Virus record (IMG/VR): IMGVR_UViG_3300020050_009955
Location: 1 to 64,000 of that record
Source: a virus
Lineage: Duplodnaviria > Caudoviricetes
Direction: 5' to 3' (one strand)
DNA length: 64,000 nucleotides
Part shown: one piece after another, positions 4,517 to 53,000 of the stretch
Layout of the letters: each line of letters starts with the position of its first letter
How positions within the stretch are numbered: position 1 is the first letter of the stretch
The notes under the pieces: model-generated
The model's input: the letters and a program-made list of their open reading frames with translations, nothing else
Told to the model about the DNA's origin: nothing
The model's database searches: none
Program-made: the position numbers and the translations under genes

Positions 4517-6814
4517 ATGATCATATCGCAATCGAATTTTATCGAAGAACATATACCAGAATACCATCCGGCAACAACATTATACAAAGATTATTGGCGA
4601 GAACAGATTCGTAGGAATATAGAAGGGTATTGGCAATCAGGATACTGGATGCCACCTAAGCTCTACTTCTATGCCAATTTTGCCACAATTAAAAAGAAGA
4701 TTAACGATAATTCGAAAGTACAAAGCTTTGGAAGACCTCTGCTACGAGATATAGAATGGATAGTATTCCGTGATATAACTGTAGCCAGAGGTTTTTCTGG
4801 TTTTGAACTAGACGATACTTATTCGTGTAATGAGCTTCTACTAGAGGAATTACCTCTTGAGCAGTTGCCACCTTCGTGTATAAATTCACAAGGTCAGAGG
4901 AAGATTTACGAAGATCCTCTATATTATATATCTAAACAGCATGCATCCAATTTAGGCAAAGCTCTATATGAGAATGAAGCTTCTAACTACATTCTGATGG
5001 GAGCTAGAGGATTTGGTAAGTCGTATATGGTAGGTGGAGTAATAGCCCATGAGTTTCTATTTGACGGTATGATGGAATACATACCGGGGCAGAAACCAGA
5101 TTCAGTAGATATTGTTGTAGGTGCAGGACACTCTAATTTCTCCACAGATCTTTTAACTAAAGCTAAGATTATGATGGATAGAGTACCTGGACAGCAAGAG
5201 ATTCTAGGAACAATATATCCATCTCCACTATCTAAAAAGACAATGGGATCCCTAACCCCGTCATCCATTTTAAAAGCTCTCTATAAGAAGCGTATAGGAT
5301 CTAGATGGCAAGATGCGGGATCATTATCTACTATTAAACACGTATCATATGCAGACAATCCATTTGCTGCACAGGGTGGTCGTAACTCTATAATGATATA
5401 TGAAGAGGTAGGTATGCACTCTAATGTACTAGAATGCTTTGATGCTTCTGTAGAAAATATGCGTCTTAATGGACGTAAGTTTGGAACCGCTATCTTCTTA
5501 GGAACTGGTGGTGATATGGAAGGTGGAGGTACCATAGGTGCTAAAGAAATATTTTACAATCCTGGTAAGTATGACGCTCTAAGGTTTGAGGATACTTACG
5601 AGAAGAAAGGACATATAGGAAGATTTATACCAGCTACTTATAACTTAGGCTCTTTGTATAGAGATGATAATAATATCACAGATTTACAAAAAGCTGTAGA
5701 AGAATTACTTAGAAGAAGAAAAGCTAAGGAAAATAAGAAAGGATCGGAATCTGCTTTAACTAAAGAAATTGTAAACAATCCAATAAATCCATCTGAGATG
5801 TTTCTAGCGGAGAATGCAGCACTGTTACCAGCAGCTGAAGCAGCCAGACGTCTACAAGAATTGGAAGCAGATAGATCTTATAATCTTATAGAAAAAGTTG
5901 TGGAGTTATATTTTGACCCAGATGCTAGAGATACTAATAATGTAAACTACAAAATAGATTCTGCTGGAAAACTTAAACCAATAACACAATTTCCACATAA
6001 GGATAAAGATAGGGAAGGCGCTATTATTATATATGAGTTTCCAGCAATGGTAAATGGTAAAGTTCCTGAAGGAGCGTATGTAATAGGACATGACCCTTAT
6101 AAAGATGATAATGAGAGAGGAGATTCACTAGCTTCTATATATGTAGTGAAATCTGCTAAGTATTTTAATGATATAGGTCATGATGAAATTGTAGCTGAGT
6201 ATGTAGGAAGACCATATGATGGTATGAATAAAGTAAATGAAACCATATTAAAGCTTTCTTTATTTTATGGGGAAGCTAAGATATATTTTGAAAATGCAGT
6301 AGGAAATACTAAAGATTACTTCGAAAGAATTAAGAGATTAGATTTACTTGCCACTAAACCAACTGCATTGTTTACTACTACCGCATCATATGCACGTAGT
6401 CCTACAATAGAGTACGGTTACCCAATGTCAAATCAATTTATTAAACGAAAAGGTATATCATATCTTCGAGATTGGTTATTGCAAGAACGAGGGGACGGAA
6501 AACGTAATATAGATCTAATTAATTCGAGAGCACTTCTGCAGGAGATTGCTTACTTTACTTACGAAGGAAACTTTGACCGAGTAATGGGATTAATGGGTGC
6601 TATATTTGGATTAGCACAAATGACTAGAAACATGGAAGAATCTTTGCATATGCCTAAGAAGGATACTTCCCCAAATCTAGATTTTATATTTAATAATAAA
6701 AAACTATTTAGAAATGTTGCAACAAACTTCTTTTCCTCTACAGAGGATGTCGTTGTCCCAGAAACTCAAAAATGGACGTCAGTGGGGCAAAGACATTATA
6801 GATTATATAACTAA
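4517..6814 (+). CDS. terL: Terminase large subunit
   Basis: Walker A GARGFGKSY, Walker B MIYEEVG, GTGG coupling motif and RNase H-like GHDPY...ENA...NFDRV. Directly upstream of the portal gene. Confidence 0.93.
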   Translation: MIISQSNFIEEHIPEYHPATTLYKDYWREQIRRNIEGYWQSGYWMPPKLYFYANFATIKKKINDNSKVQSFGRPLLRDIEWIVFRDITVARGFSGFELDDTYSCNELLLEELPLEQLPPSCINSQGQRKIYEDPLYYISKQHASNLGKALYENEASNYILMGARGFGKSYMVGGVIAHEFLFDGMMEYIPGQKPDSVDIVVGAGHSNFSTDLLTKAKIMMDRVPGQQEILGTIYPSPLSKKTMGSLTPSSILKALYKKRIGSRWQDAGSLSTIKHVSYADNPFAAQGGRNSIMIYEEVGMHSNVLECFDASVENMRLNGRKFGTAIFLGTGGDMEGGGTIGAKEIFYNPGKYDALRFEDTYEKKGHIGRFIPATYNLGSLYRDDNNITDLQKAVEELLRRRKAKENKKGSESALTKEIVNNPINPSEMFLAENAALLPAAEAARRLQELEADRSYNLIEKVVELYFDPDARDTNNVNYKIDSAGKLKPITQFPHKDKDREGAIIIYEFPAMVNGKVPEGAYVIGHDPYKDDNERGDSLASIYVVKSAKYFNDIGHDEIVAEYVGRPYDGMNKVNETILKLSLFYGEAKIYFENAVGNTKDYFERIKRLDLLATKPTALFTTTASYARSPTIEYGYPMSNQFIKRKGISYLRDWLLQERGDGKRNIDLINSRALLQEIAYFTYEGNFDRVMGLMGAIFGLAQMTRNMEESLHMPKKDTSPNLDFIFNNKKLFRNVATNFFSSTEDVVVPETQKWTSVGQRHYRLYN

Positions 6815-10474: not shown

Positions 10475-11980
10475 ATGGCAAATACCGCAGGAAGTTCGAT
10501 GATCATCAAGCATTACGACGGATTTGGAGGTAATTTCATTGACTCTCAATATTTAGGAGCATCTTATGATGGTGTAGGTAAACCTCACGTATTCCAAGAT
10601 ACCCTAATGAGAATCTTCTCATCACAGAATAGATTTATCACTAATGGTGGTAAACTTCTGATTGGTATGACAGGTGCGAAAGGCCCTATCAATACCATGG
10701 AGATAGATACTGAAATCTACAGATGGTACCTACAAGGTGCTGATTATAGAACGGCGAGAGTAATTGAAAACCCTGAATCTTCTAATACAGTGCTTGGTAT
10801 CAACAACACAGTATTCAGACTAAAATTAGATTTAGATTATTACGCAGAACCAGATGTTCTATTAGCAGAAAATAACAACTACGCTCTTGAAGTAATAGGA
10901 GATCCTATTCAAGAAGGAAATGGTTATGTTTATTCATTCCGTCTTCAAGGAGACGATATGTCACAATACCTTCCAAGCTACTTGGTAGATCCAGGAAGAG
11001 AGCTTTCTAAAGGATGGACTTCAGTTCAGTCTGAGTACAATGAGAAATTCGGTACTCAACAATACCCATCTTCAATGCAACTTGAACACCAAATTTCTTA
11101 CTTTGCTGAGAAACAAACTGTTACAGACAAAGCTTGGAGAAATCAAGGTAGACTTGGAGTAAAATTCCTTTACAAAGATCCTATGTCTGGCGCAGACAAA
11201 TCAGTTGAAAAATTCCTTCCATACGCTGAAGCAGTAATGCAAGATCAGTTCCACATGGACATGGAAGTTCAAATGATGTTTGGTAAGAAACAAACTAGAG
11301 CTGGACATAAAGGTTACTGGAAGAAAACTGGTAACGGTGTAAGAGAGCAACTAAAAGATAGCTGGATAGATATCTATTCATCTGCTTTAACTGTTACTCG
11401 TCTTAAAGATTACCTATTAAACATCTTCTTTGCAAGAGTAAATGAAGGAGATCGTAAAATGGTGGCTATGACTGGAACTTATGGTTCACTTCAATTCCAC
11501 AACATGCTTGCTTCTGTAGCTAGCTCATTCTTGACTGTAGACACTATGTTTACTCAGATGCTATCTAAAGATCCTAGACACTTATCATTTGGTGCTCAGT
11601 TCACTCACTACCAAGGTCCTGAAGGAATCGAGGTGACTTTAGTGAAGAACCCAATGTACGATAATCGTCAGTATTGTAAGCAAACACACCCACAATACTC
11701 TAACATCCCTGTAGATTCATTCCGTTATACATTCCTTGATTTTGGAGGAGCTGGTACATCTGAAAAAGGTGGAGCTATCAACAATATCATGATGTTGAAA
11801 GAAAAAGATTCTTACGCATGGGGTTATGTTCATGGTACACACACTCCAACAGGTCCTGTTAAAGGTGGAGTAGCTGGTGGTCTTATCGCTGGTTATGATA
11901 TCTTTATGCAAGGTTCTGCAGGTGTATGGATCAAAGACGTTACACGTTGTGGTGAGCTCGTCCTGGACTTTCAAAGCTAA
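10475..11980 (+). CDS. Major capsid protein. Unspliced form ends ELVLDFQS; spliced form join(10475..11953,12803..12829) ends ELIYDSQS
   Basis: About 500 aa with crAss MCP-like motifs (YRWYL, GNGVREQL, TGTYG, FGAQFTHY, NPMYD, FLDFG, DVTRCGEL) and the expected synteny. Confidence 0.9.
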   Translation: MANTAGSSMIIKHYDGFGGNFIDSQYLGASYDGVGKPHVFQDTLMRIFSSQNRFITNGGKLLIGMTGAKGPINTMEIDTEIYRWYLQGADYRTARVIENPESSNTVLGINNTVFRLKLDLDYYAEPDVLLAENNNYALEVIGDPIQEGNGYVYSFRLQGDDMSQYLPSYLVDPGRELSKGWTSVQSEYNEKFGTQQYPSSMQLEHQISYFAEKQTVTDKAWRNQGRLGVKFLYKDPMSGADKSVEKFLPYAEAVMQDQFHMDMEVQMMFGKKQTRAGHKGYWKKTGNGVREQLKDSWIDIYSSALTVTRLKDYLLNIFFARVNEGDRKMVAMTGTYGSLQFHNMLASVASSFLTVDTMFTQMLSKDPRHLSFGAQFTHYQGPEGIEVTLVKNPMYDNRQYCKQTHPQYSNIPVDSFRYTFLDFGGAGTSEKGGAINNIMMLKEKDSYAWGYVHGTHTPTGPVKGGVAGGLIAGYDIFMQGSAGVWIKDVTRCGELVLDFQS

Positions 11981-12802
11981 ATTAATCAATAATTATGAAA
12001 ATTTCTAAAAACTTTGTATCTTCTAATAAATTTGAAATTCTTGAAAAAGAATGGAAAGATGTACAAATAAATAATTTTACAATTATATCTATACCTGGAT
12101 TTATAAGTCGTGCTGATAACGATTCTTCAGCAACTCCTGCAGTACATATAAAGTGTACTTGTGGAAAAGAGCTTATAACAAGTTTTTATAGAGTAAAAAA
12201 TGGTAAAACAATTTCTTGTGGCTGTCACAATTCAAACTATAAAGAAGGAGATAAAGCAAATGCTTATGATTTAATGAATAGATATAGGTATTCTGCAAAG
12301 AAAAGAAATTTTTCATTTGATTTAGAATTTAATGATTTCTATAATATTATAAAACAAAATTGTCATTACTGTAACGTAGAGCCTAAACAATCTAGAATTG
12401 TTAAAGGTTGCAAAGAGACGGTAATTTACAATGGTATAGATAGAGTAGATTCTAAAGAAGGTTATAAGATATCTAATTGTGTAGCTTGTTGTTTTACATG
12501 CAACAGAGCCAAATCAGATATGTCTTATGATCAATTTATTGAGTATTTAAATAGAGTGTCTATTTATTCGCCTCAACTAAAAAATCGGGATGTAACGGTG
12601 AAGCCTAAAGACTTAATTGGATATGGTAATACCGTGAGTACTACAGACGAAGTAGTATTTGTAGAGCATAGTAACTGCGCGTTAAATCGAAGCAATAACG
12701 TTACCACGAGCTCCCGAAACAGCTATTGCTGTTAAAATATATGCCGAACTTATAAGAAATTATAAGAAGTAGAAGATAAAAAACTTTTACGATAACAAAA
12801 TG
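11954..12802 (+). mobile_element. Group I self-splicing intron with homing endonuclease in the P1 loop
   Basis: 5' exon ends in U (11953) and the intron ends in G (12802). P1: GUUGUGGU/GAG pairs with IGS UUCGCCUCAAC (12567-12577) with U.G at the splice site. P3: UCGGGA 12585-12590 with UCCCGA 12712-12717. P4: ACGGUG with UACCGU. P6: GAGUACUAC with GUAGUAUUU. P7: GAGCAUA 12664-12670 with UAUGCC 12740-12745, bulged A. P8: AACAGC with GCUGUU. P9: CUUAUAA-GAAA-UUAUAAG. The 3' exon is in frame. Confidence 0.88.
11995..12735 (+). CDS. Intron-encoded HNH-type homing endonuclease
   Basis: KCTCG...SCGC Zn motif and CHYC...NGIDRVDS..GY...NCVACCFTCNRAKS nuclease motif. The last ~55 codons run through the ribozyme core. 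Confidence 0.88.
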   Translation: MKISKNFVSSNKFEILEKEWKDVQINNFTIISIPGFISRADNDSSATPAVHIKCTCGKELITSFYRVKNGKTISCGCHNSNYKEGDKANAYDLMNRYRYSAKKRNFSFDLEFNDFYNIIKQNCHYCNVEPKQSRIVKGCKETVIYNGIDRVDSKEGYKISNCVACCFTCNRAKSDMSYDQFIEYLNRVSIYSPQLKNRDVTVKPKDLIGYGNTVSTTDEVVFVEHSNCALNRSNNVTTSSRNSYCC

Positions 12803-12829
12803 GAGTTAATCTACGATTCTCAATCTTAA
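12803..12829 (+). CDS. MCP exon 2 (ELIYDSQS-stop)
   Basis: GAG TTA ATC TAC GAT TCT CAA TCT TAA follows the terminal G, in frame with exon 1. Confidence 0.8.
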   Translation, partial: ELIYDSQS

Positions 12830-12971
12830 GAAATTCGTTAGTGGTGAGTTATTTATAACTCAAAATTCTATAGCTCAAATACCCTTTCCTATCTCGAGCT
12901 TGAAAAAGGACTGTGGGACGTTATACTAAGTAACGTTAAATAAAGGAATACTAGGCGCAAAAAATAATAAT

Positions 12972-13943
12972 ATGTTAGTATATGTAATGTCGATCCCTAG
13001 ACCGACAGCAACAAATGTAAGTGAGCTTGTTAACGGCAGCTCAGGTAAAAAATTGAACAAAACTAAAATGGGATCTTGTACAGATAGAATCTCAGCATTG
13101 TATTCTCCTAAAGTTGGAGGACTTGCTAATGGACTATCTTACAAACCATGGATAGAAGATGGTACTCAAAAAATAGATGAACTCACTAAAAAACCCCTTA
13201 CTCTACAAGATAAGATGGAAAGAAAGTGGGGACTAGAGCCAGGCTTTCTAACCAATAAAGCCTGGATGAATGGCGACTCTTTAGATGAAGAGAAAATGAC
13301 CTACTATCAAAAGAAATATTGGTCTTTGAATGACGGTTCTACAGTGTTTGATACATCTAATATGGATGAAGAATTAGGTTACTATATGTTGCTAGATTCA
13401 AAACTAGTAGCAAATTCTGAGAAAGAATGGAGAGATCATAAATGGCCAGACGCTAAATTCTACATCTCACTGGAGAATGAAGAAGATGAATTAAAAGCAT
13501 CTAAAGCGAGATCTAAAGCAGCAGCTAAGGCTCTAATTGTAAATCCAGATTTCTCACTTAATATGCAACAAAAATTTGTACATATCTTAGGATTAGCACA
13601 AACAACTGTATCTCTAACTCCAGATGCTATATTCAATGTTCTAGATAACTACATAGATTCTACAACATTTACACCTGGATCAAACATTGAGAAATTTAAT
13701 GAGCTTGCTGAGAATCTTAAAACTCCACATGGACGTGAAAGAATTGAAGCTAGACATCTTCTAAAAAGAGCATTAGACTCTAGGATAATATTCGAAAAAC
13801 AAGGTGGTTATTTCTGGCCAAGACCAGAAGGTCAAATCACACTTGGAGAAAATTACTCCGAAGCTATTGAATATCTACTAGATCCTAAAAAAGAGGTAAT
13901 GGTAGAAGACATGCATGCGGAACTAAAATTAAAAGGGTTTTAA
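12972..13943 (+). CDS. Conserved crAss-like capsid-module protein
   Basis: 323 aa directly after MCP, with KLVANS...FYI..E..E and LGEN..EAIEYL..PK features. Confidence 0.65.
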   Translation: MLVYVMSIPRPTATNVSELVNGSSGKKLNKTKMGSCTDRISALYSPKVGGLANGLSYKPWIEDGTQKIDELTKKPLTLQDKMERKWGLEPGFLTNKAWMNGDSLDEEKMTYYQKKYWSLNDGSTVFDTSNMDEELGYYMLLDSKLVANSEKEWRDHKWPDAKFYISLENEEDELKASKARSKAAAKALIVNPDFSLNMQQKFVHILGLAQTTVSLTPDAIFNVLDNYIDSTTFTPGSNIEKFNELAENLKTPHGRERIEARHLLKRALDSRIIFEKQGGYFWPRPEGQITLGENYSEAIEYLLDPKKEVMVEDMHAELKLKGF

Positions 13944-50000: not shown

Positions 50001-53000
50001 ATGGAAAACGTTTAGCATCGTTTATTCCTACTTCTACCTTTAGAGAAGTATTGAAAGATTATAGAAGATATAAAGAAGGAAAAACTTCTAGATTTTTGAA
50101 TTCAGAATTTTTTGGAGAAAACATATTTTTAAATGGCGTAAACTCTATTAAAGATACTACAACACGTTTCTATGCTTTAGAAAGTGGGAGATATATTTAT
50201 AATGCTACTGGGCTATCAGCAGCTAAAAAAGTTAGTATAGCTTTTAATGACGCTTTTATTTCATCTATAGCAAATACTGATGTTTATTTCCAAATGATAT
50301 ACCAACAAGGAGAAGCTACTAAACCAGAAATGCCACAAGTATCATTCCTTAAATATGAAGGAATAGAAAAAGCTTTAGACTCTATGTTAAAACAACTTTT
50401 GGTTTTGGATACAGATCAAGTTGCTCAGAAAAAATATCAGAAAGAACATAGGCTGAATTTCTCGTTATATGAAAATGCTAAAAAGGATTTAGGTAAAGAA
50501 GATTCTTCTTTAAGTGATGCTAATTATAGAAAACAATTAGTAGATCATATGATTAAGCAATTATTTTCTAGAGCTCAAGAAATGAGAAAAGGTCTAAAGT
50601 CATCTCAGATTCCATTAACAGGAAATCTAAGAAAAGCATACACTAAGGTAAAAGCTTCTTATGTTGATAGTAGAAGTAATACAGCATTAGCTTCAGTATT
50701 AGATTTTACACAATTGGCGGAAAATTTGGATGACTACTATCCGCATAGTACTAGCTTTAAAGATAGAATCTACCCCGATGATAATGAATTAGACTTAATT
50801 TTATTTAGTTTTGTAGCTAATAATTATGTTAACTCTTTTGGTTTAAGTCAATTAGCTTATGGGGATTTTAATATGTATGGAGATATTGAAACTCTAGTTA
50901 AGAGAGCTCAGATGAGTGCATCTCCTGGATATCTTCCATTAATACATTCAAAATATGGTGTAGAGAGGTATGCTAATATCTTAATGGGTACGGATGTCGA
51001 AACACCTGGTTCTGAGTATATGAAATTATTAGGAAATTTTAATTTATCTGCAAGGGAAATAGAAGAAATTAGAGATCAATTACGTGATGGAGATAAATTC
51101 GATTCTATAGAGAGAACAGATGGTGTAGTATTTGTGACTCCAAGATACTTTGCAAAATTACAAAAATCTTTTGGATCTGGATTGAACTTAAGGAATGTAA
51201 TGAAAGACCAAGCTTTTGGCTGGTCTGAAGAAATTATCGCAGATAAAGAACATTACTTTGCAACTAAAGAGGAATTATATAAATATCTTAAAGAGACAAA
51301 GGGTTTAGAGAAACCTATTCAAAATACACACTATATAGAAGAACTTGCTGAAGGATATAAAGATGTTATATCTGGCTATTATCCAACAAAAGTTAAGATG
51401 CAACCAGTTGGATTAAAGAATGCTATGGTTGTTCTAGATGAGGCATTTATTCAGCAGAATAGTGCAAGTAGAGAACAATTAACTAAGCTTAAAAAATTAT
51501 TAGATACTGCAGAAGTCAATGGTAAAAACATAGATATGCTAGTATTTAAATCATCTAATAAAGTAGGAGCAGAATCTACTCATAATATATTTGATAATGA
51601 TGGAAAATTAATAGAAAATTCTGAGCAAAATATCGAAGATTCTATCATTAAGTTGGATATGTCTTTGTTTAAAATCCAATACAATCCGCATTCAGAAGAT
51701 ACTACAACAGCAGTACCTAGACAATTATTACATTTTGCTAATACTATTGTAGATTCACCTAATAGTCCCGAAGCGCAAGAGTTGTATTCAACTTTAGCAT
51801 CTATACAAAATCTTTCTTATTTAAATAAATTTGGTTCTTATGATTTAGATATGTCTACTATACGTGGAATGTTTGAATCTACAGTGCAAAAAGGAGATGA
51901 GAATTTTGTTATCCTTTCTGGTATAAGTGCTGGGTTACCATTAGATCACCCATCTTTAGCAGTTAAGGCTATATCATCTTTAGGATCTACTTTAAACTCT
52001 ATAGCTTCTAGAATTAGAGTGCCTGGAGGGAAATTGATACTAAGATCAGATATAGGTTATGAATTAAAGGATGGAAAAACAAAAAGAAAATTAACTATAG
52101 GGACTAGTGAACTAGGAACTCCTTATGCAGAAGCTGTTATTCCTGCACATTTCTTAACATCTGCGCAAAAAGACGCTATAGCTTCAGGTAAACCTTTATT
52201 TATAATACCAGAGATGTTTGGATTTAGAATACCTTCTGGAGATATGAATGCAGGATTAATGATAAAGGTTGTTGATTTCTATGAAACTGAAGGTAGATCT
52301 AATATTGCAATACTTCCAGATTTAGAAATCTTTAAACAAGGTTGGGATTTTGATGTGGATGCTCTATTTTTACTAAACTTTGCAGAGCTAGATAAAGATT
52401 ATTCTATAGGAAAATTAAATCTCACCAAAGGTTCTCTACCTGGATTTGAATTATCTAAAGATGGTAAATCTGTTTATAATATTCTAAATGGTGACAGCTT
52501 CGAAGAATTTGAAAAAGACTTAATAGCTGAAGTTAAAAGTGCTAATAATAGAATAGATAGTATAGAAAATAAATTACAAAGCTTTAAAACAGCAGAATCT
52601 AAAGAATCTTTAGAATATAAAGAATTAAGTAGTAATCTTAGACGTGAAAAGAAAGCAATAAAAGATTTAAATAAAATTAGAATTACTGCTCTAAAAAACA
52701 GATTTGTAAGAGGATTCTTTATGCTATATAATAATCCTAAAAATGCTGGTAGGATATTAGATGTTACTACAACAAAAGTTATTGACAATGCTATAGCTAT
52801 GTTACGTAAAGACGGTCTATACGACGAAACTCCAAGTATGGATCTATCATTCCTAGAAGACAATATAGCTCAGTATTTAAATGTAAATGAAGCATCTAAA
52901 GCCATAGGTATCTATGCTAAGGGTTCTAGTGTAAATGCATACATAGGACACGCAGGTCAATTGGGCACTAACAATAGACCACAAATTGGTGAGGAGATGC

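Follow-up and report, generated by a model that had tools for sequence, protein, structure and literature searches.

How the gene for a phage capsid protein can be followed by two versions of its own last eight codons is the question raised by a locus of IMG/VR record IMGVR_UViG_3300020050_009955, a crAss-like phage sequence of 99,355 bp judged 97% complete, of which the first 64 kb (64,000 nucleotides, hereafter the window) were analyzed. The open reading frame (ORF) at 10475-11980 encodes 501 aa and corresponds to the major capsid protein (MCP), with a full-length match to Pfam Crass_capsid (2.5e-76) and a match to the PHROG major head protein (3e-68). Its end, GAG CTC GTC CTG GAC TTT CAA AGC TAA (11954-11980, tail 1), is followed further downstream by GAG TTA ATC TAC GAT TCT CAA TCT TAA (12803-12829, tail 2), of the same length, with 5/8 residues identical and 11/24 coding nucleotides differing. 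The first exon ends with ...TGT GGT at 11953, after the Gly493 codon and 8 codons before the stop, and joining 11953 to 12803 across the 849-nt insert, which is bounded by U (11953) and G (12802), also gives an MCP of 501 aa with the predicted junction GTGGT followed by GAGTTAATC. The original prediction, made from the letters of the window, had described these two 27-nt tails, their equal length, their 5/8 identity and the 501 aa obtained either way, and direct reading bears all of this out: the observation is real. We consider it probable that the insert is a mobile group I intron of subgroup IA, with an HNH endonuclease gene in the loop of its P1 helix and a recoded spare tail under selection, which keeps the unspliced message competent for capsid production.

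Loci lacking the insert indicate which of the two ends is native. L001, 99% identical to the window, has an MCP ending in ELIFDSQS and a stop codon, followed by the same DNA as the window from 12830 onward, and in L003 and L004 (82% identical) the MCP ends in EMIYDSQN and a stop codon. In L113, where the insert is present, the end of exon 1, tail 2 and the downstream DNA are all identical to those of intron-less L004; the two form a clean presence/absence pair, which therefore locates the insert between GGT and GAG. These intron-less loci identify tail 2 as the native 3' exon, as had been predicted, and tail 1 as part of the insert. Tail 2 also keeps its frame and stop and uses the codons preferred in the MCP. 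Between the window and L001, 6 of the 1,479 positions of exon 1 differ, two of them in the Arg codon pairing in P1, and 4 of the next 600 downstream, yet 9-10 of the 27 positions of the L001 tail differ from either tail of the window. This distribution is read as a local foreign tract around the insertion site, expected after homing.

Several results converge on tail 1 being a substitute C-terminus of the MCP. A profile made from 92 other crAss MCP tails was applied to the 72,840 8-mers from all six frames of the window and put tail 2 first (15.9 bits) and tail 1 second (15.1 bits), the next-best stop-followed 8-mer in the window scoring 5.6. The resemblance of tail 1 to an MCP tail is far beyond chance and, judged by this comparison, that of a true homolog. 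An in-frame MCP-like tail is present at the intron start in all five intron-bearing loci, with 8 codons, or 7 in L113: tail 1 and tail 2 read ELVLDFQS and ELIYDSQS in the window, ELCLDFQS and ELIYDSQS in L112, ECILDFQ and EMIYDSQN in L113, and ELVLEYEG and ELIFDYEG in L114, and tail 1 is ELLLDYEG in L119, the contig of which ends before tail 2. Among the MCP relatives (n=119) the tail follows R[CG]GEL[IV][YFL]D.., and tail 1 falls within this family variation. Between carriers, synonymous divergence (pS) of tail 1 is 0.6-1.3, hence saturated, versus a nonsynonymous divergence (pN) of 0.1-0.4, and frame 0 is the only one both open and conserved (summed identities of 41 versus 25 and 18). Identity between the two tails is 13/24 nt and 5/8 aa in the window, 15/24 nt and 5/8 aa in L114, and 18/24 nt and 8/8 aa in the sister locus L118, so that the insert displays the features of a carried substitute C-terminus: an in-frame position, a native end displaced downstream and low DNA with high protein identity. 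Tail 1 of the window contains CTC and GTC, which occur 0 times among the 493 exon 1 codons, and CTG, which occurs once there; its GC content is 48%. In the predicted MCP structure (overall mean predicted local distance difference test, pLDDT, of 71), residues 493-497 (GELVL) lie in a beta-strand with a pLDDT of about 81, as would be expected if the tail is structurally required. The recoded spare MCP C-terminus of the original prediction is thus borne out by the tail profile and the five loci, with pS far above pN pointing to selection.

The remainder of the insert has the properties of a real group I intron with an intact-looking ribozyme, as judged from comparative evidence. Positions 12621-12804 match, with 75-90% identity, DNA that fills gaps in the portal and tape-measure genes of Firmicute phages unrelated to this one, and the 3' terminal module is common to more than 100 IMG/VR contigs. 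Covariation was assessed on an alignment comprising the window copy, three further copies from crAss-like phages and six from other phages, using a structure written from the window sequence. Paired cells amount to 93.1%, versus 74.6% in shuffles (0/500) and 30-43% with partners slid, and double-sided changes are found in 35/51 pairs, including 5/6 pairs of P3 and 4/5 of P7.1; the P7 variants are GCAUA/UAUGC, GCGUA/UACGC and GACUA/UAGUC. Compensation also occurs among the crAss copies themselves, in P6, P7.1, P8, P9 and P9.1. For instance, P8 is AACAGC/GCUGUU in the window and AACAAC/GUUGUU in L112, and the remaining core differences between these two all lie in loops or joining regions. The terminal G is at 12802, within an ...AACAAA(A/U)UG end invariant across all aligned members. 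A covariance model of the 3' half of the intron (R1), built from seven non-crAss members only, matches the window end to end at 12661-12802 (118.1 bits, E 3.6e-24), likewise matches L112, L113, L114 and L119, and weakly the Rfam-supported intron of L003; a search of L001, L117 and L118 with R1 gave no match. The extra helix P7.1 between P7 and P3' is the hallmark of subgroup IA in the Michel and Westhof scheme, and it is present in the window intron.

The helices announced for this ribozyme, P1 with a U.G pair and P3-P9, and its terminal G were recovered; only the position of the guide differs, 615 nt separating it from the 5' splice site upstream, so that it comes after the ORF. This guide, GCCUCAAC (12570-77), pairs with GUUGUGGU (11946-53) at 7/8 positions, with the U.G at 11953/12570 and one conserved U/U mismatch. 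Position 7 of P1 covaries across the 5 loci, being U-A in the window and L113 and G-C in L112, L114 and L119, in which the CGU codon for Arg in the exon is replaced by AGG or CGG, and the A of the guide by C. On the 5' side of the guide, bases 12562-12569 pair at 7/8 positions with the 3' exon GAGUUAAU to form P10, with a compensatory change in L113, and match only 3 bases of tail 1. With the guide behind the ORF, the P1 loop holds both tail 1 and the HNH ORF (Table 1). Two alternatives were rejected: a 5' splice site placed after tail 1 instead would have no complementarity to the guide sequence, and stop-codon reassignment is incompatible with tails that all end in TAA and an MCP ORF that is open under table 11.

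Table 1. Coordinates of the MCP end, the intron and its parts in the window
Feature	Coordinates	Strand	Evidence
MCP exon 1, 493 codons, crAss-type major capsid protein	10475..11953	+	Pfam and PHROG; 99.6% identical to intron-less L001
P1 5' strand GUUGUGGU, with the splice-site U as its last base	11946..11953	+	pairs with internal guide 12570-12577, U.G at splice site
Predicted whole group I intron, 849 nt	11954..12802	+	presence/absence pairs window versus L001 and L113 versus L004; ribozyme evidence
Tail 1, spare in-frame MCP C-terminus ELVLDFQS and TAA, in P1 loop	11954..11980	+	tail profile rank, peptide conservation
HNH-type predicted homing-endonuclease ORF, 246 aa	11995..12735	+	PHROG matches
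Internal guide: P10 part 12562-12569, P1 3' strand GCCUCAAC 12570-12577	12562..12577	+	P1 7/8 and P10 7/8 paired
Ribozyme core, terminal G 12802	12585..12802	+	covariation, model R1
P3	12585-90/12712-17	+	covariation alignment
P4	12596-600/12630-34	+	covariation alignment
P5	12603-05/12625-27	+	covariation alignment
P6	12638-44/12652-58	+	covariation alignment
P7 (pseudoknot with P3)	12666-70/12740-44	+	covariation alignment
P7.1	12671-75/12700-04	+	100% paired, 4/5 pairs covarying
P8	12718-23/12728-33	+	covariation alignment
P9, GAAA loop	12749-55/12760-66	+	covariation alignment
P9.1	12769-75/12784-90	+	covariation alignment
Tail 2, native 3' exon ELIYDSQS and TAA	12803..12829	+	downstream DNA same as intron-less L001; preferred MCP codons

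The ORF located in the P1 loop encodes a predicted homing endonuclease. It matches PHROG endonuclease VII (4e-17) and HNH (7.6e-13) profiles, its nearest solved relative is the HNH restriction enzyme PacI (3ldy, 6.5e-5), and a Pfam search gave no match at E<=0.1. All relatives share an HNH-type motif with Cys-rich zinc sites, CHYC...NGIDR.DS..GY...CC..CNRAKS. Conservation of the ORF extends to about 12573, the last ~50 codons being a read-through over the guide and the core, and in relatives of 194-198 aa the reading frame terminates at the guide. The ATG is found 14 nt after the stop of tail 1, with relatives ranging from an overlap to 19 nt. The closest relatives (53-90% identity) are all encoded directly after a crAss MCP; a protein search of viral contigs revealed no related loci and that of metagenome contigs one identical copy (L120) together with distant HNH genes. 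The DNA runs that contain 71-89% of the words sampled from 11800-12900 are metagenomes of activated sludge, wastewater and freshwater, produced in several studies. The insert is polymorphic, present or absent between genomes 99% identical, and a divergence tract flanks its site, a combination suggesting that the enzyme would cleave the element-less allele.

Other loci combine the same parts differently. In L117, the HNH gene is located 2 nt after the MCP stop, with no ribozyme (according to R1) and no second tail. L118 displays, in this order, MCP exon 1, a tail 1 reading EIIYDSQS, a 19-nt spacer, the HNH gene and a second EIIYDSQS with its stop exactly at the insertion site; the HNH ORF runs directly into this second tail, and the two copies have 6 nt differences and 0 aa changes. 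As both loci are devoid of the ribozyme, the upstream tail must be the working MCP C-terminus in L117 and L118, and reliance on such a tail in these sister loci makes the "splicing-optional" character attributed to the window intron plausible. At the same site, after RCG, in a more distant MCP, L128 and L129 harbor a related HNH gene together with a ribozyme of this family. Their read-through, CKIEIVVCVKIKFYL and a stop codon, is unrelated to an MCP tail (profile score -17) and represents a natural control: since this intron does without such a tail, the MCP-like tail does not simply come with the intron. The HNH tree places the free-standing pair as the sister group of the intron-borne sequences (support 87/75 and 83/80), with P0142 on a long branch. 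The exact abutment of HNH and tail 2 in L118 leans slightly towards a primary cassette, and the tail-less L128 leans towards the opposite order, with a cassette that would not be primary.

Taken together, these characteristics suggest the following functioning for the intron. Ribosomes on the unspliced MCP RNA would read tail 1 and produce a full-length MCP of 501 aa, and termination 14 nt before the HNH AUG could allow a coupled low-level translation of the endonuclease, as proposed for T4 mobE (PMC2988022). Because the HNH ORF spans the guide sequence and P3-P8, its translation is expected to hinder and compete with splicing; in T4, translation of an intron ORF overlapping the core lowers td splicing (PMC2988022). 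The spare tail would take away the cost of this conflict, the unspliced message still giving a usable MCP and the spliced one the native tail. The DNA divergence between the tails plausibly blocks loss of the element through repeat recombination, and the recoding of tail 1 plausibly avoids re-creating the HNH target at the exon 1/intron junction. Concerning its origin, the element probably either arose when an "HNH plus spare tail" cassette merged with an intron using the same site, or was itself the parent of such cassettes via loss of the ribozyme.

RNA libraries (six runs with 7-15% of the sampled words, available as contigs only, so that missing cover of the ORF carries no weight) contain related sequences. 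Contigs of runs X15 and X20, from two studies, present a joined form made of exon 1, GAATTAATCTACGATTCTCAGAAC and TAA, with the tail ELIYDSQN and not the window allele, which may be the spliced RNA of a relative or come from a strain lacking the intron; another contig of X15 covers 12593-12822. One contig of run X16, near-identical to the window, joins 11985 to 12553, skipping 11986-12552 with 26 nt on the far side, a weak hint of an HNH-less intron form of ~282 nt that keeps tail 1.

A number of points weigh against the interpretation of the insert as a mobile intron with a selected spare tail. An Rfam search of the whole window at the gathering score and of 11700-13100 at E<=10 gave no group I match and noise only, RF00028 included; the lack of a covariance-model match, which the original prediction named as a refuting outcome, is seen with this generic model and not with the family model R1. 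We read this miss as a low sensitivity of RF00028 for a subgroup with a 0.6-kb insert, because the family member L007, in which Rfam Intron_gpI assigns the same helices and which has a canonical AAGAUAUAGUC element, reaches only 33.7 bits (E 1.4e-6) where the gathering score is 50, and because R1 cross-matches the L003 intron. The quality of the predicted MCP structure is moderate (mean pLDDT 71), and the selection statistics are based on small numbers, with 8 codons per tail and loci partly related by descent. Tail 1 of L112 shares its ends with the L001 tail, a mosaic pattern suggesting some gene conversion with native tails, which could add to the peptide similarity. One gain or one loss of the ribozyme would fit the HNH tree equally well, and both the splicing and the translation of unspliced RNA in the window phage are predicted from sequence comparison.

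A more far-reaching version of the same interpretation, which we hold as tentative, is that of a natural "recoded-rescue" homing element caught in transitional states, where both messages would be translated and virions would bear two MCP C-termini in a ratio set by translation versus splicing. The states would be intron, HNH and tail (window, L112, L113, L114, L119), HNH and tail (L117, L118), intron and HNH (L128), and perhaps, as a fourth, intron and tail without HNH (the X16 contig). In engineered homing gene drives of the recoded-rescue type, a nuclease insert in an essential gene carries the recoded 3' part of the coding sequence. As in these drives, the carrier allele would stay functional and presumably not be re-cut; unlike them, the element is natural, phage-borne and uses an HNH enzyme instead of Cas9.

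It seems unlikely that tail 1 is a passive relic, that is, a functionless exon fragment left by imprecise homing or by the capture of an HNH gene with the 3' end of its neighbor, either recent or refreshed by conversion. An origin by recombination is plausible under the collaborative-homing model (PMC2988022), tail 1 of L112 has GAA... and ...CAA AGT TAA in common with the native L001 tail, and the related intron of L128 does without a spare tail. However, HNH identity between carriers is down to 53% and the synonymous sites of tail 1 are saturated, yet its frame, length, stop and residue types persist in 5 intron-bearing and 2 ribozyme-less loci, and tail 1 shares only 54-75% of its nucleotides with native tails, less than a recent conversion would leave.

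Somewhat less credible still is a dead or irrelevant ribozyme, in which case the insert would be a free-standing HNH cassette, the MCP would always end with tail 1, and the ribozyme and tail 2 would be decaying passengers. L117 and L118 illustrate that a cassette works without ribozyme, no junction reads among the RNA contigs are assignable to the window allele, and Rfam has no match in the window, but decay is at odds with the compensatory changes within the crAss clade (P1 position 7, P6, P7.1, P8, P9 and P9.1) and with a tail 2 that keeps its frame, stop and preferred codons. Very improbable, finally, is the conservation of the first 27 nt for an RNA or DNA role only (P1 extension, endonuclease binding site or stop placement) and not for the peptide: the short stop-to-ATG distance in all loci, from overlap to 19 nt, and the recurrence of CTGGA(C) in 3/5 tails would agree with it, but nucleotides vary most at synonymous positions, the other frames hold stops and are unconserved, the peptide scores as an MCP tail, and a mere stop needs no 8 MCP-like codons, as seen in L128.

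The intron with its selected spare tail can be compared with several known systems. Phage group I introns with HNH endonucleases include those of I-HmuI of SPO1, I-BasI, I-TwoI and I-PfoP3I (PMC3428280, PMC2988022). In crAss-like phages the MCP gene is itself a known site of group I introns (Yutin et al. 2021, PMC7886860). The window intron resembles the HNH-bearing phage introns by its IA type, its location in an essential conserved gene, the 3' end of its ORF over the core and the exon conversion tract. It differs from them by an ORF in the P1 loop, a guide 615 nt from the splice site, and an intron start formed by a recoded, selected duplicate of the exon end that it displaces, for which these papers have no counterpart. 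In fungal mitochondria, endonuclease ORFs with a foreign C-terminus are known for atp6 of Allomyces macrogynus and for atp6, atp9, cox2 and nad3 of Glomus sp. (PMC3630166). They share with the present case an endonuclease ORF near the 3' end of an essential gene, an in-frame substitute C-terminus of low DNA and high protein identity, and the native end downstream. Most of them are devoid of a ribozyme and their native end is an unused remnant, whereas the native tail of the window would be reachable by splicing; moreover, the duplicate has only 8 codons here, the host is a phage capsid gene, and sister lineages exist with and without ribozyme. Collaborative or trans homing, where a free-standing endonuclease acts on the insertion site of an intron, has been described for F-CphI with the cyanophage psbA intron (PMC6083498) and for T4 mobE with I-TevIII (PMC2790892; reviewed in PMC2988022). 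Here also, free-standing (L117, L118) and intron-borne forms of one putative homing HNH lineage occur at the same MCP site, the starting material that this model expects for the making or unmaking of a mobile intron, but a spare tail is no part of it. No report of a spare exon end within a phage intron was found in the literature searched; the combination inside an intact phage intron appears to be new, substitute C-termini and crAss MCP introns being already known.

These comparisons give the element a more general interest. The persistence of mobile introns is ascribed to precise splicing, which conceals them from selection, and the expression of their endonuclease conflicts with splicing. 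The window element appears to have a second, independent route to harmlessness, as it brings a replacement for the 8 displaced codons of the most abundant structural protein. It could be a natural counterpart of the recoded-rescue design of synthetic gene drives, and its sister lineages with and without ribozyme constitute a testable system for the joining or parting of endonuclease genes and introns, the subject of the collaborative-homing model. For annotation, it indicates that a seemingly intact MCP ORF can conceal an intron and a second C-terminus. The intron family itself is widespread in Firmicute and crAss-like phages, and its member in the window went undetected by the Rfam group I model.

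The 3' module of this family, GAUAAAAARCYUUUACGAUAACAAAAUG, is exact in more than 100 viral contigs (L010-L111). The phages concerned are mostly of Firmicute-phage type, as judged from named records, and the family is also found in crAss-like phages of Bacteroidota type; this shared occurrence implies that the intron family moved across very distant phage groups. In Clostridium phage phiCD211, a family member (L009:2328-2594) is located immediately upstream of an annotated Intron_gpI (L009:2618-2883) in the tape-measure region; the pair looks like two tandem introns, neither of which was reported by an Rfam search at E<=0.1. In the window, a weak R1 match at 51902-52023 on the minus strand (14.1 bits, E 0.46) is most likely noise.

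The MCP region of relatives contains further insertions. L114 has a second strong copy of the intron family (L114:4800-4956, R1 102 bits) in a gene downstream of the MCP, and another insertion splitting the MCP itself (L114:1631-2336), with a 202-aa ORF and a weak R1 match of 27.8 bits. Canonical group I introns that score with Rfam (73.6 and 38.3 bits) occupy two other MCP sites, at L003:5004-5260 and 6238-6376 and at L004:4753-5009, equivalent to window positions ~11485 and ~11618, the second one with an ORF. On the basis of these positions, the MCP gene is regarded as an intron hotspot in this clade.

Beyond tail 2, the intergenic region 12868-12965, before the next gene (12972), is conserved in relatives that are only 50-80% identical at the protein level. 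It comprises a hairpin, ACGUUA-UACUAAG-UAACGU (12918-12936), apparently compensated in L117 (ACGCU.../...AGCGU), and then a near-invariant UAAAUAAAGGAAUACUAGGCGCAAAA, and may be a candidate regulatory RNA or promoter element.

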